DNA of 64,000 nt from Massilia sp. (GCA_045810465.1 JBJMVW010000221.1:23197-87196); one strand, 5' to 3'. Counted from the stretch's first letter, positions 22,334-26,909 are shown. Numbers and translations are program-made. The notes: generated by a model not told the origin, from the sequence alone.

Positions 22334-22419
22334 TTGCAAAACAATTCGACTCTGACCCTACTTTTACGGCGAGTAGTTGCAAAACAATTCGACTCTGACC
22401 CTACTTTTAACGGCGGTAG
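22334..22419. repeat. Two tandem 43-bp units containing a 26-bp dispersed repeat (TTGCAAAACAATTCGACTCTGACCCT)
   Basis: Identical 26-mers at 22334-22359 and 22377-22402, each followed by ACTTTTA(A)CGGCG(A/G)GTAG. The same core recurs 4 times at 26754-26909. Confidence 0.85.
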
Positions 22420-22937
22420 GGATTGTCCGGGCGGCTGTCATAGCGGTTCGGGACGCCGTCGCCATCGCGGTCGCGGTCGTAGCGGTTCGGCACGCCGTCG
22501 CGGTCCTCGTCCCAGCGGCCTTCGTGGCGGCGCTCGTAGCGGTCGGGGATGCCGTCGCGGTCGCGATCGTGGCCGCGCCACTCCATGCGGTCCGGGATGC
22601 CGTCGCGGTCGCGGTCACGGCCGCCGTATGCGCTCCAGCGGGCCGGCTCCATGTACCAGCCGCCGTCGCGCTGGTACCAGGCCGGGGCCGAATACACATA
22701 GCCCGGGCGCTCGGCCACCCAGTAGCCGCCTACCCAGTCATGGCGGTGGCCGCGCCACTCCCAGTGGCCGGGAGCCCACACGTAGCCGCGGCGCGGCGCC
22801 GGCACCCGCTCGTACATGGGCGCTGGCGGGGCCGAGCCGACCACCACGCTGAGGTGGGTTTGCGCCATCGACGGCAGCGGGGCATAGGCGGCCGCGCCAA
22901 GCGCGATCAGGGTTGCAAAGGTGAGGGTGCGTTTCAT
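22407..22937 (-). CDS. Secreted protein with WxxGxW-type repeats and Asp/Arg-rich TSP3-like (DxDxDG) calcium-binding repeats
   Basis: Start MKRTLTFATLIALGAAAYA (signal peptide). YVWAPGHWEWRGHRHDWVGGYWV repeats; DRDRDGIPDR / DRDRDGDGVPNRYD repeats. Confidence 0.6.
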   Translation of the reverse strand: MKRTLTFATLIALGAAAYAPLPSMAQTHLSVVVGSAPPAPMYERVPAPRRGYVWAPGHWEWRGHRHDWVGGYWVAERPGYVYSAPAWYQRDGGWYMEPARWSAYGGRDRDRDGIPDRMEWRGHDRDRDGIPDRYERRHEGRWDEDRDGVPNRYDRDRDGDGVPNRYDSRPDNPYRR

Positions 22938-23127
22938 GTCAGGTCTCCAGATCCAAAACGGATGATTCAATATATCAATCCACGCCGCGGATGGGGCGAA
23001 TTGATGCACCTGCTTACAACTGAAACAGATGTGTTTGAAACCGTAACGGCTGGAGCGACAGGACCGCAATGGCAAGCACGGACGCGCGGGCAGCCGGTGG
23101 CTGGCGTGCGTCCGCGTGCGGTGAAGG

Positions 23128-23538: not shown

Positions 23539-26500
23539 ATGACAGGAGCAATTGCCACCGTATTCGAACTGCTGGCCACCGGCCGCACCGCGCGGCGGCG
23601 CGCGCGCAACCTCTCGGCGGGTGCGCGGCGCACCCCGGTGGCCGGTGCGGCGGCGGCAAACCGGGCCTGGCTGCGGCTGCCGCGCCTGGGCGCCGTGGCC
23701 TGGATCGGCGCGCTCGGGACGCTGCTCGCGCTCGCGGCGGCGCTGGCGATCGCGTTCCATGCACGGCTGCTGGCCGCGACGGCGATCCGGACCCAGCCCG
23801 GCTCCAGCGCCGCGCAACTGGAAGCGCTACAGCCGCTGCTGCCGGGCGCCCGCCTGCAGGTCCCGGCGCAGCCCGGCGCCAGCTTGCAGGCGGCCGGCGA
23901 GGGCGCGGTCCTGATGCTGACTGGGCTGCGCGCCGAGGCGCCGCTGCATATCGACCTGTGCGCGCAGATGGCCGGCGCGGGTCAGCCACGCCTGCTGCCG
24001 CTGCGGATCGGTTACCGGTTCAGCGACGTCGCGCGCTGGGTCGGGCGCAACCAGGCCGCGGCCAGCCCGCAAACCGTGCGCAATATCGTGCTGGCCGCGC
24101 CGGGCGCGCCGATGCCGGCGCTCGAGATCACCGGCACGGCCGTGCCCAACTTCGCCGATCCTGGCGCCCAGCCCCTGCGGCTGCGCTGGGAAAGCGACGC
24201 CGCGCCCGCGCATTGGATCGGCGAGGGCGGCGCCGTCGCCATGGCCCGCAGCGTGCGCGGCGAGGCCGCGCTGCGCCAGGAAGGATGGCTGGTGTGGCGC
24301 GGCGACAGCGCGCTGCGCATCGCGCGCCGCGCCAGCGCGGCCTGTCCGCAGGCCGGTGAACTGGTGCTGCAGCTGTACCACGGGGCTGGCGGCGTGGCCG
24401 GCAAGTCGCTGGTGGTGGCCTTCGCGGCGCATGGCGCAGCGCGCAGCGTGTGGCTGGCGCCGGGCGAATACAGCGTCCCCGCGGCAGCTCCCGCTGCGCT
24501 GGAAGACCAGGCCCTGTTCGAACAGCTGCGCGCACACCGCTTGCTGCGGCTCGGCGCGTCGGGGCTGGCCGAACTGGCTCCGCCCGACCTGCCGGCGCTG
24601 CTGGCCGCGCCCTCCGCCGCGCGCGCCGCGCCAGTGGCCGGATGGGATACCGTGCGCTTCGGCGATGCGGCGCGTGAGCTGCTCGACCGGCTGTACCACA
24701 AGGCCGACGGCGATTATATGCGCGAGCAGATCCGCATCTTCAATAGCGAGCGGCGGCTGCTGGCATGGCGCGTGCGTGGCGCCGGCCTGCCGCTGCCCGC
24801 GCGCGCGAGCGTCGGCGGAGCGCCCGCCGCCACTACCGGCGCGATGCCCGCTGCCGCGGCGCGGCTGTTCGCGCAGCTGCCGCAGTGCTGGTCGCCATGG
24901 ACCCGCGTGGCCGACTGGCCGGCCGCCGGCGACGACGCGCTGTTGACCCTGCCGCTGCCGCGCGCGGCTGCGGGCGGCGAAACGCTGCAGCTGCTGGTGG
25001 CCGGCCGCATCGGCGCCGTCGCAGGCGCACGCCTTCGCGCCGTGCCGCTGCCCGCCTGCACCGGGCGCGCCTGCCCCTCGCCCGAGGCGGTGCAGCAGGC
25101 CGAGCTCGCGCTGCTGCCTGGCGCGCGCCAGGTCACGCTTGCGGTCACGCCGCTCGACAGCGGCGCGCTGGCGGCGCCGGGTGACCACGATTACCGCCAC
25201 CTGCGCATCGACGCCGGCGGCCTCGCCTGGCAGCCGCTGGTGCAGCGCGCGTGGGCGCCGCGCACGCCGCTGGCCGCCGCCGTGATCCTGGCCGACCGTT
25301 CGGGCAAGCGCCTGTGGGCCGACGGCATGCCTTCCACCGAGGCCGAGGCAGCGGGGCTGGCGCCGCTGCTCGGGCTGCGCGCCGAACACGCCAACAGCAT
25401 CGCCGGCATGCTGGCGCGCCTGCCGTCCAATGGCGCCCCGCACACTGCGCGCCTCACGCTCGACCTCGCGCTGCAAGCGGCCAGCGCCGCGGCGCTGGAC
25501 TGCATCGGCATGCGGCGCGGGCGCTTCGATGGCGGCCGCTGCACTGGCGGCGCCGCGCCGCCCGCGGGCCGCCAGGCCGGCATCGTGGTACTCGATACCG
25601 AAACCGGCGACGTGCTGGCGGCCGCCGGCGCCGGCAGCGGCAAGGTCGACCCATCCAACTGGACCGAGGTGCGCGACTTCGACCGCGCCGACCCCGCGCG
25701 CAGCCCGCTGCGGCTGCCGGCGCTGCAGCACGACGGCGGCGCCCATCGCAGCCCCGGATCCACCTTCAAGGTCATCAGCGCGCTGGGCCTGGAACTGGCC
25801 GCGCAGCGCGACCCGCAACTGTCGGCACTGCTCGACGGCATGCCGCTGGCGCAAATCAACCGCATCGCCGGCGCCAAGGGCTTTGCCTTCCGCACCGGCG
25901 CCGCCGCCTATCCGGCCGACACCAGGCTGGCGCACATCACCAACTTCCGTGACCAGCAGCTCGACCGCCGCGCGCAGGACGGCAAGCTGGGCCTGGCGCA
26001 GGCGCTCACCTACAGCCTCAACACCTGGTTCGCCTGGACCGGCGAACTGTCCGACCGCAGCCTGTTCGGCCGTCCGGACGGCGGCGCGCCCGGCCTGCAG
26101 GCGCTGGCGCCCGGCACGTTCGACGGGGTGCGGCCGATCGTCGAGATGGCGCAGCGGCTCGGCTTCGAACAGCCGCTGCGGCTGGACGGCGGGCTGCTGC
26201 CGGCCGACTACCCGTGGTCGGCGTGGGATGCGTTACAGGGCAGCGCGGCCCACATCGACCCGATCCACACGCGGCACGAACTGCGCCAGATGGCGATCGG
26301 GCTGCGCATGCAGGTGACGCCGCTGCAGATGGCGCTGGCGGCGGCTGCGGTGGGGCAGGGCCGTGTAATCGCGCCGCGCCTGCTGCTCGCGCTCGACGGC
26401 CGCGAAGCGCGGCAAGCGGAAGGGCCGGCGCTGGGCGTACGCCTCGACCGTATCCGCGCCGGCATGAAAGGGGTAGTCGACGCCGGCACGGCGGCCAGTG

Positions 26501-26754
26501 CGTTCCGCGGCGCCGCGTTCGACCGCATGCGCGCGGGCCTCTACGGCAAGACCGGCACCGCGCCGACCGGCGAGGTTGACGCCGCGGGTCGCGAACTGGC
26601 CACGGTATGGTTCACCGGCTGGCTCGAACCCGGCAGCATTCCGGGCCAGGCGCACCGCCTGGCCATTGCCGTCTTCGCCAGCCACTCCGAAGCGACCGGC
26701 GGCGAGCACGCCGCGCCGATCGCCGCCGCCGTCCTGCGCTCGCTGCAAAAATAG
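23539..26754 (+). CDS. Large membrane-anchored protein with C-terminal penicillin-binding (class B-like) transpeptidase domain and ~600-aa uncharacterised N-terminal region
   Basis: N-terminal TM (LGAVAWIGALGTLLALAAALAIAF). C-terminal third carries the three PBP motifs in order: STFK (SxxK), SLN (SxN), KTGT (KTG). The region between lacks recognisable PBP-dimer-domain motifs. Confidence 0.75.
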   Translation: MTGAIATVFELLATGRTARRRARNLSAGARRTPVAGAAAANRAWLRLPRLGAVAWIGALGTLLALAAALAIAFHARLLAATAIRTQPGSSAAQLEALQPLLPGARLQVPAQPGASLQAAGEGAVLMLTGLRAEAPLHIDLCAQMAGAGQPRLLPLRIGYRFSDVARWVGRNQAAASPQTVRNIVLAAPGAPMPALEITGTAVPNFADPGAQPLRLRWESDAAPAHWIGEGGAVAMARSVRGEAALRQEGWLVWRGDSALRIARRASAACPQAGELVLQLYHGAGGVAGKSLVVAFAAHGAARSVWLAPGEYSVPAAAPAALEDQALFEQLRAHRLLRLGASGLAELAPPDLPALLAAPSAARAAPVAGWDTVRFGDAARELLDRLYHKADGDYMREQIRIFNSERRLLAWRVRGAGLPLPARASVGGAPAATTGAMPAAAARLFAQLPQCWSPWTRVADWPAAGDDALLTLPLPRAAAGGETLQLLVAGRIGAVAGARLRAVPLPACTGRACPSPEAVQQAELALLPGARQVTLAVTPLDSGALAAPGDHDYRHLRIDAGGLAWQPLVQRAWAPRTPLAAAVILADRSGKRLWADGMPSTEAEAAGLAPLLGLRAEHANSIAGMLARLPSNGAPHTARLTLDLALQAASAAALDCIGMRRGRFDGGRCTGGAAPPAGRQAGIVVLDTETGDVLAAAGAGSGKVDPSNWTEVRDFDRADPARSPLRLPALQHDGGAHRSPGSTFKVISALGLELAAQRDPQLSALLDGMPLAQINRIAGAKGFAFRTGAAAYPADTRLAHITNFRDQQLDRRAQDGKLGLAQALTYSLNTWFAWTGELSDRSLFGRPDGGAPGLQALAPGTFDGVRPIVEMAQRLGFEQPLRLDGGLLPADYPWSAWDALQGSAAHIDPIHTRHELRQMAIGLRMQVTPLQMALAAAAVGQGRVIAPRLLLALDGREARQAEGPALGVRLDRIRAGMKGVVDAGTAASAFRGAAFDRMRAGLYGKTGTAPTGEVDAAGRELATVWFTGWLEPGSIPGQAHRLAIAVFASHSEATGGEHAAPIAAAVLRSLQK

Positions 26755-26909
26755 GGTCAGAGTCAAATTGTTGGGCAACTAGTGGTTCAACTATAAAAAT
26801 GGGGTCAGAGTCAAATTATTGAGCAACTAATTGCCCAACAATTCGACTCTGACCCCAATTGTGGTGATCCAATTGTGGATTAGTTGCTCAACAATTCGAC
26901 TCTGACCCC
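26754..26909. repeat. Four copies of the 26-bp dispersed repeat: two forward (26754-26779, 26801-26827), two inverted (26831-26856, 26884-26909)
   Basis: GGG(G)TCAGAGTCAAATT(G/A)TTG(G/A)GCAAC and its reverse complement TTGC(C/T)CAACAATTCGACTCTGACCCC. Copies 2 and 3 form a ~26-bp-arm hairpin with a 3-nt loop. Confidence 0.85.

Follow-up and report, generated by a model that had tools for sequence, protein, structure and literature searches.

Two short intervals in a 64,000-nucleotide stretch of a Massilia sp. genome (GCA_045810465.1, JBJMVW010000221.1:23197-87196; hereafter the window) carry six copies of a 26-bp repeat and lie to either side of three genes, encoding a WXXGXW protein, a small protein and a penicillin-binding protein (PBP)-like protein. 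What kind of element is this repeat, and does its position around those genes carry any meaning? A sequence-only reading of the window had proposed a terminator or attenuator, an RNA element, a mobile repeat resembling a miniature inverted-repeat transposable element (MITE), or a marker of recombination boundaries. Our analysis indicates that the repeats very probably belong to a family of REP elements (repetitive extragenic palindromic sequences) and of REP doublets forming hairpins (REPINs), laid out like bacterial interspersed mosaic elements (BIMEs), that is found in the Oxalobacteraceae and has a cognate REP-associated tyrosine transposase (RAYT) which, by analogy, would mobilise it (REP, REPIN and RAYT as defined in PMC2817692, PMC3116915, PMC3479197 and PMC5581495).

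The features that place the family there are a 16-mer abundant in extragenic DNA, hairpin-forming inverted doublets whose spacing is fixed and which gather into clusters, inverted copies on either side of a Y1 transposase gene, what appears to be chromosomal inheritance at a syntenic locus, and insertion polymorphism. Membership is nevertheless atypical, because the units are non-palindromic and lack a GTAG head, and because the transposase scores below the NCBIfam cut-off for RAYTs. The greater length and complexity once taken to distinguish the element from a typical REP do not set it apart, as its layout is that of REP doublets and BIME-like clusters.

Repeat units, doublets and distribution

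The six 26-bp copies lie at 22334-22359 and 22377-22402 (both on the + strand; locus 1) and at 26753-26778 (-), 26801-26826 (-), 26831-26856 (+) and 26884-26909 (+; locus 2). Each has 0-1 mismatch to the consensus of the sequence-only reading, the 16-nt core AATTYGACTCTGACCC is exact in 6/6, and dinucleotide-preserving shuffles give an expectation of 0.00 copies in the window. A profile hidden Markov model (HMM) built from 463 units of other genomes recovers precisely these six (E values 4.5e-10 to 3.9e-8), with no seventh copy in the 64-kb window up to E=10. Motif count, shuffles and profile HMM thus bear out the six copies at two loci, and the tandem 43-bp units at locus 1 and the inner hairpin at locus 2 are likewise confirmed. 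The 26-mer as first described holds overall, with three amendments: the first copy at locus 2 begins at 26753 and not at 26754, the final base is C or T, and the conserved unit is longer on its 3' side (...GACCC-TAATT).

Locus 1 consists of two direct tandem 43-bp units (22326-22366 and 22369-22409) that are 95% identical. The profile places unit 1 at 22331-22364 (+; core AATTCGACTCTGACCC at 22343-22358, arm TTGCAAAAC; nhmmer E 1.4e-8) and unit 2, in direct tandem with it at a period of 43 bp, at 22374-22407 (+; E 9.1e-9). Locus 2 has a nested inverted layout (-,-,+,+) extending over 26751-26911, in which unit 3, the outer left arm (26748-26781, -; E 5.9e-9), pairs with unit 6, the outer right arm (26881-26911, +; E 3.2e-8), at 90% over 26751-26781 and 26881-26911. 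This outer pair encloses the inner hairpin of unit 4 (left arm, 26796-26829, -; E 3.9e-8) and unit 5 (right arm, 26828-26861, +; E 4.5e-10), whose arms at 26797-26826 and 26831-26860 are 87% complementary around a 4-nt loop. Units 4 and 5 together make up a REPIN-like doublet with a 22-nt spacer between cores, which folds as DNA at -20.3 kcal/mol (z -8.5), and the whole cluster folds as RNA into a single long nested hairpin at -91.8 kcal/mol (z -12). Over both loci the G+C content is about 50%, against 70-80% around them, and the dip is confined to the repeats. The short open reading frames (ORFs) beginning MQNNSTLTL... do exist and are spurious readings of the repeat, and no RNA family in Rfam 15 matches the repeats in the window at the gathering score.

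A scan of one genome per species (596 Gb) with the 19-mer AACAATTYGACTCTGACCC matched at least 115 loci, so that the motif is clearly present beyond the two window loci, contrary to the absence elsewhere that would have refuted the sequence-only reading; copy numbers given here are per-locus samples among these matches. By taxon, 89 of the matched loci fall in Massilia (72), Collimonas (7), Telluria (4) and 'Oxalobacteraceae sp.' (6), and the remainder come mostly from Burkholderiales-type metagenome-assembled genomes (MAGs). The typical density is 2-8 copies per 8 kb. Matches in unrelated phyla have one copy each, about what chance alone would give for a 19-mer across 596 Gb. Searches of 2.9 M viral contigs and of 72,556 plasmids found no copy of the repeat, and blastn of the window against the 115 listed loci returned no orthologous locus. 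One contig labelled as an uncultured Stenotrophomonas MAG (CAMICU010000122.1, locus L088) holds 13 copies in 8 kb at 54% G+C and is probably mis-binned.

Gap-free alignment of 465 units from the matched loci gives the consensus TTGCCCAAC-AATTCGACTCTGACCC-TAATT or, in degenerate form, (A/G)TTGCC(C/A)AA(C/T)-AATTCGACTCTGACCC-(T/C)(A/C)ATT. Information content is 1.3-2.0 bits per position in the core, whereas the 9-nt arm varies far more, and conservation runs 5 nt past the 26-mer first recognised. The basic unit is about 31 nt long, comprising a variable arm TTGYCMAAY, the near-invariant core and a conserved TAATT flank; in the weight table, the arm is preceded by RAAR-TTG and the core is followed by (T/C)(A/C)ATT.

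The units are arranged with marked regularity. Inverted '-+' neighbours are the commonest relation, with 27-28 nt between cores in 95 of 166 cases, while '+-' neighbours are mostly 36-37 nt apart and direct neighbours mostly 27 nt (equivalent to the 43-bp period in the window) or 79-80 nt apart. The commonest cluster type is '-+-+' (23 cases), and the '--++' and '++' types of the window recur as well. Doublets fold as DNA at -20 to -28 kcal/mol (z -8.5 to -12). Within them, arms of type A (GTTTGACAAC) pair with arms of type B (RTTGRGCAAY) in 31 cases, as against no A-A and seven B-B pairs, and the two arms are less alike than shuffled pairs (6.1 versus 6.6 of 11 positions, about 3 standard deviations). 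Compensatory covariation between the arms of a doublet was looked for and the opposite was found, namely heterotypic arms.

The transposase gene enclosed by inverted copies

Among copy pairs lying more than 150 bp apart, a '-' ... '+' pair separated by 800-1080 bp recurs in many genomes, and between its copies lies an ORF of 231-245 residues (MARQPRLIVPEQPHHVIQRGNNRQ...PNHLHLL...YIELNPVRA). By tblastn this ORF was found at 16 loci in 16 genomes, one RAYT locus per genome in the sample, and in 13 of the 16 genomes the coding region is flanked, at a distance of 22-231 bp, by a '-' copy to its left and a '+' copy to its right. The product matches Pfam Y1_Tnp at 31.7 and 43.9 bits (threshold 23), and no variation is seen at the residues aligned with H59 and H61 (the HUH motif) and with the catalytic Y115 of E. 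coli TnpA-REP. Used as a single-sequence query, the transposase has no match in the PDB. The family profile, in contrast, places 4ER8, the structure of a RAYT with a bound REP hairpin, first (E 0.004 versus 0.25-0.5 for ISDra2 and IS608), and a Foldseek search with an AlphaFold (AF2) model (pLDDT 66.7) likewise ranks 4ER8 at the top (E 2.7e-6, TM 0.69 normalised to target), with an E value two orders of magnitude ahead of IS608, IS200 and ISDra2. Public annotation of this protein is 'transposase' only, and most of its protein clusters occur on a single contig each.

The RAYT locus is syntenic in Massilia, Telluria, Collimonas and a beta-proteobacterial MAG (53% protein identity), a distribution that, as far as gene order can tell, fits a vertically inherited, domesticated RAYT gene (PMC5581495). 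The evidential weight lies in the flanking repeats staying conserved over that distance. At the RAYT loci L038, L075, L012 and L083 the gene is in every case followed, a short way downstream, by a large and highly conserved gene encoding a protein that starts with M(I/Q)AQGLYDP(A)NEHDACGVGF and that we take to resemble the glutamate synthase large subunit.

The copies beside the transposase gene differ from those dispersed elsewhere. A variant of the repeat, GGGACAGAGTC / GACTCTGTCCC, occurs within 350 bp of the gene in 35 of its 41 occurrences, and canonical copies lie just outside it (for example L038 5380-5560, L082 4180-4210 and L012 2750-2825). These variant copies may be 'private' ends of the transposase gene. 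Since the gene keeps the GGGACAGAGTC end variant and dispersed copies carry GGGTCAGAGTC, the enzyme's own gene could, on a less likely reading, be immobilised while 'cargo' hairpins spread.

We envisage the following course of events. A doublet of two inverted units with 27-28 nt between cores would form a hairpin of 60-70 nt in single-stranded DNA or RNA and is the likely mobile unit, with doublets piling up as clusters at gene 3' ends. If the RAYT acts as IS200/IS605 and E. coli TnpA-REP do, and as the biochemistry of its family suggests (PMC3479197), it would bind the hairpin in single-stranded DNA and, by cleaving and rejoining it, place copies of doublets at new sites.

Gene ends, insertion polymorphism and rival explanations

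Placement relative to genes was assessed with a caller based on G+C at third codon positions (GC3), which reproduces the obvious genes of the window and calls about 80% of the DNA as coding. Against that background, only 3 of 141 clusters overlap a called gene (98% extragenic). For 111 clusters with genes called on both sides, compared with 554 background cases by Fisher's test, convergent flanking genes are enriched (36/111 versus 84/554; p 6.5e-5) and divergent ones depleted (3/111 versus 72/554; p 8e-4), with co-directional genes at 72/111 versus 398/554. Most clusters begin 0-35 nt past a stop codon, and in about one-seventh of cases the stop codon lies no more than 7 nt from a core, within the TAATTA/TAG flank of the element.

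Both window loci stand next to gene 3' ends and so fit this pattern. Locus 1 sits between the TAA stop of the WXXGXW gene (22407-22409, -), which is contained in the distal flank of unit 2, and a terminator-type hairpin at 22281-22318 (-), a G+C-rich inverted repeat with 19-nt arms followed by a T run and stable in an RNA fold. This hairpin is probably the intrinsic terminator of the WXXGXW gene, and units 1 and 2, lying between it and the stop codon, are thus in the 3' untranslated region (UTR) of that gene. At locus 2, the current stop of the PBP-like gene (TAG, 26752-26754) is the TAG of TAGGGTCAGAG in unit 3. The earlier statement that all copies are intergenic holds only in part, since at locus 2 the TAG that ends the gene is part of the repeat and the cluster sits within ancestral coding sequence.

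Given this placement, the repeats might instead be host regulatory elements, that is, bidirectional terminators or stabilisers of mRNA 3' ends kept by selection, with the link to a transposase incidental. Clusters do nearly always adjoin a gene 3' end, with convergent arrangements enriched and divergent ones depleted; their outward flanks are T-rich (41% versus 18.5% in the background), their hairpins are very stable as RNA, and the inner hairpin of locus 2 followed by CCCCATTTTT fits the terminator pattern on the - strand only. However, only 23% of outward flanks contain TTTT (35% have at least 7 T in 14 nt), and the hairpin of locus 2 lacks a following T run on the transcribed (+) strand. 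Moreover, the locus 2 cluster lies inside an operon that is tightly packed in relatives (gaps of 3-68 bp), locus 1 lies upstream of a separate canonical terminator, and relatives lack repeats at both sites. Selection for regulation would explain where the repeats are tolerated, but not the spread of identical 16-mers to hundreds of sites, and we regard it as improbable as a full account. The repeats may still serve the host secondarily at the 3' ends of mRNAs, which would be compatible with a REP/REPIN family; protection of 3' ends, partial termination or the uncoupling of downstream operon genes would all be plausible effects.

The insertion history of the two loci was examined in orthologous regions from relatives (L116-L121), retrieved via homologues of the PBP-like protein. 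Gene order is kept throughout, running HD - RNase H-like - WXXGXW - small protein - PBP-like - downstream genes. Neither window cluster is present at the orthologous sites in L116, L117 and L120, and the locus 2 cluster is missing in L116, L117, L119 and L120. Over 17-23 kb, no repeat copies were found in two metagenomic relatives (73% and 68% protein identity), nor in Massilia sp. S19_KUP03_FR1 or M. violaceinigra (CP024608, 23-kb sample). Massilia horti (L119), while lacking a cluster at locus 2, has a different, independent '-+-+' cluster in the gap that corresponds to locus 1. The sequence-only reading had proposed such an alignment to examine the presence or absence of copies in related strains. 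Of the options it offered, a MITE-like mobile repeat comes nearest, since the element is non-autonomous, hairpin-forming and absent from orthologous sites.

Two further observations concern the gap that holds locus 1. The M. horti cluster (L119, 8630-8900) has a near-copy of a terminator-like hairpin (AAAAAAAACGGCCCGGTC...GACCGG) at each border, giving the appearance of a target duplication of about 40 bp around the insertion. In addition, a second, G+C-rich palindromic family (for example GTCGTTCCCGCGGAGGCGGGAACCCAAGTT ... AACTTGGGTCCCCGCCTCCGCGGGGACGAC) occurs at intergenic sites in Massilia relatives (L117 8690-8815, L063 6974-7206, L057 5194-5273 and L093 6401-6642), among them the gap occupied by locus 1 in the window.

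The end of the PBP-like gene preserves a trace of the insertion itself. The PBP-like proteins of relatives terminate in ...VLRSMLAQSGEPKDKTGSAGRQ (...GSAGRQ) or ...VLRTMLLQEGKSKVPPGPAARQ (...GPAARQ), whereas that of the window terminates in ...VLRSLQK. Downstream of the cluster, in frame at 26912-26959 (+), lies a remnant of the ancestral 3' end that reads ...RPASPARQ and closes with the old TGA stop (26957-26959). Because this in-frame gene end survives after the repeats, the cluster of about 160 bp was inserted into the last 17 or so codons. Judged from the sequence, it has replaced the tail of the gene and donated the new TAG stop. One cluster accordingly landed in the 3' UTR of the WXXGXW gene and the other within the final codons of the PBP-like gene. 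On a less likely reading, the hairpins may act as portable cassettes of a stop codon plus 3' end that remodel gene ends, as at the PBP-like gene.

Insertion polymorphism would also be expected of a MITE derived from an insertion sequence (IS) of the DDE type, such as an IS630/Tc1-like element with a TA duplication (as in Correia elements), for which the core GGGTCAGAGTCGAATT would be the terminal inverted repeat (TIR). The doublet does have the look of a MITE, with conserved inverted termini, a variable middle and a length of 60-70 bp, and about 70% of units have TA immediately outside the core. Among all inverted copy pairs 150-4000 bp apart in 118 loci, however, the Y1 transposase is the one ORF found repeatedly between the copies, with no DDE transposase seen. 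Conservation passes beyond the TA into AATT, so that the TA is not a clean target duplication, and direct tandems and alternating arm types are BIME-like rather than MITE-like. A DDE-type origin is accordingly very unlikely.

Least credible of all is the view that the repeats are recombination or integration sites (att-like, integron-like or dRS3/NIME-like) bordering a three-gene cassette, for although the two loci do flank three genes, and clustered repeats in other bacteria can act as hot spots of recombination, synteny of the three genes and of those around them is kept in L116-L121 whether repeats are present or not, no integrase lies nearby, viral contigs and plasmids gave no matches, and G+C dips only within the repeats themselves. 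The same three genes stand in the same order in five relatives without repeats at one or both sites, which speaks against a marker of recombination boundaries and makes the bracketing by two clusters coincidental. The DDE-MITE, att-site or cassette-border and pure-terminator explanations were thus rejected.

Several findings weigh against assignment to a REP/REPIN family with its own RAYT. At the level of the unit, single consensus half-units fold at only -1.1 and -2.1 kcal/mol as DNA (one indistinguishable from shuffles at z 0.12, the other marginally more stable at z -2.6), in keeping with their being non-palindromic; no covariation between positions -1 and +21 indicates a stem closing a single unit; and no GTAG, GT(A/G)G or CGTC head is conserved at either unit end in the 465-unit weight table. 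At the level of the enzyme, the only NCBIfam match, REP_Tyr_transpos (NF047646), scores 62.3 bits and so falls below the cut-off of 80, and the transposase gene is not in the 64-kb window, its flanking by repeats being seen in relatives only. Synteny across genera further means that the 16 RAYT loci represent one ancestral arrangement and are not independent. Finally, no gain or loss of units was seen between genome pairs at 91-95% nucleotide identity, suggesting that transposition is rare or ancient. From pairwise alignments at that identity, no insertion junction or target duplication is definable; more distant pairs do show unit-containing indels, including some next to the RAYT gene, but with fuzzy borders. 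Turnover is slow, as described for REPINs.

Some features of the neighbourhood lie apart from the repeats. The PBP-like protein (23539-26754; 1071 residues) is 100% identical to an NCBI protein recorded from a Massilia sp. MAG, in agreement with the window's own origin in a Massilia MAG. It combines a transpeptidase domain at its C terminus with a long, uncharacterised N-terminal region; the next gene downstream starts at 27018. The PBP-like gene heads a conserved string that extends to about 36000 and includes four genes without a Pfam match, a Band_7-like gene and a Ser/Thr kinase-FGE-sulfatase fusion; the string is kept across Massilia and Duganella (L116-L121). The WXXGXW gene contains a direct 39-bp repeat (22434-22500) encoding Asp-rich repeats of the DRDRDGIPDRY type, which have weak thrombospondin type 3 or calcium-binding-like matches. 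A tRNA-Leu gene (anticodon TAA; 61565-61651, - strand) is the only Rfam or ARAGORN match in the window (Rfam 61568-61651).

Novelty and comparison with known systems

Full-text literature searches found no paper with the motif, the single match being an unrelated Vibrio paper, and no report of RAYT or REP sequences for Massilia, Collimonas, Janthinobacterium, Herminiimonas, Herbaspirillum or Duganella. Although elements of this kind are well known, this particular family appears undescribed in the literature searched. There is a slim chance that it represents a distinct RAYT clade whose recognition logic is unlike that of GTAG-headed, self-palindromic REPs, a reading suggested by the non-palindromic half-sites, the lack of a GTAG head, the heterotypic pairing of arms and the private GGGACAGAGTC variant.

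No new category of element is opened by these repeats, and their value lies mainly in annotation, since they yield spurious ORFs. They also break short-read assemblies, with many transposase-bearing contigs only about 1 kb long, and they can shift stop codons, as about one-seventh of adjacent genes end no more than 7 nt from a core. Beyond annotation, the finding extends the known REPIN-RAYT systems by one that is family-wide in a beta-proteobacterial lineage. The synteny of the transposase locus across genera suits the study of long-term element persistence, and the atypical unit, with neither palindrome nor GTAG head, together with the private flank variant, could show how a RAYT recognises its substrate.

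Among known systems, the Correia elements of Neisseria (CREE/NEMIS) are alike in being small, abundant, hairpin-forming inverted repeats near genes that can alter the ends of genes and the processing of transcripts. The Neisseria elements measure 100-155 bp, have 26-bp TIRs and a TA duplication, and are not known to have a cognate transposase. The repeats described here, in contrast, flank a Y1 transposase gene and lack a clean target duplication.

The REPIN-RAYT system of P. fluorescens SBW25 is closer (PMC3116915, PMC5581495). It shares with the present family a conserved extragenic 16-mer, inverted hairpin doublets of fixed spacing, higher-order clusters, and a Y1 gene beside or within the repeats at a syntenic locus that here appears to be chromosomal and vertically inherited. 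In contrast to SBW25, however, the half-units here are non-palindromic and a doublet usually combines arms of two types, the spacer between cores is 27-28 nt as opposed to segments of 71 or 110 bp, and the transposase has 231-245 residues with a long C-terminal extension and falls under the NCBIfam RAYT cut-off.

The REP/BIME system of E. coli with TnpA-REP (YafM; 4ER8; PMC3479197, PMC2817692) differs in that its REPs are individually palindromic and carry a 5' GTAG head, both lacking in the units described here, and in that protein identity is only about 21% and the RAYT gene of the present family has its own inner flank variant, GGGACAGAGTC. In both systems, however, two unit types alternate, with orientation alternating as well and with fixed linkers. 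The Y and Z REPs of E. coli BIMEs alternate in type (PMC2817692, PMC3479197), and the A and B arms, with family linkers of 27-28 and 36-37 nt, parallel them. Likewise, the transposase gene lies between inverted units in both, the HUH motif and the catalytic tyrosine align, and 4ER8, the structure of the E. coli enzyme, is the best structural match of the transposase described here.

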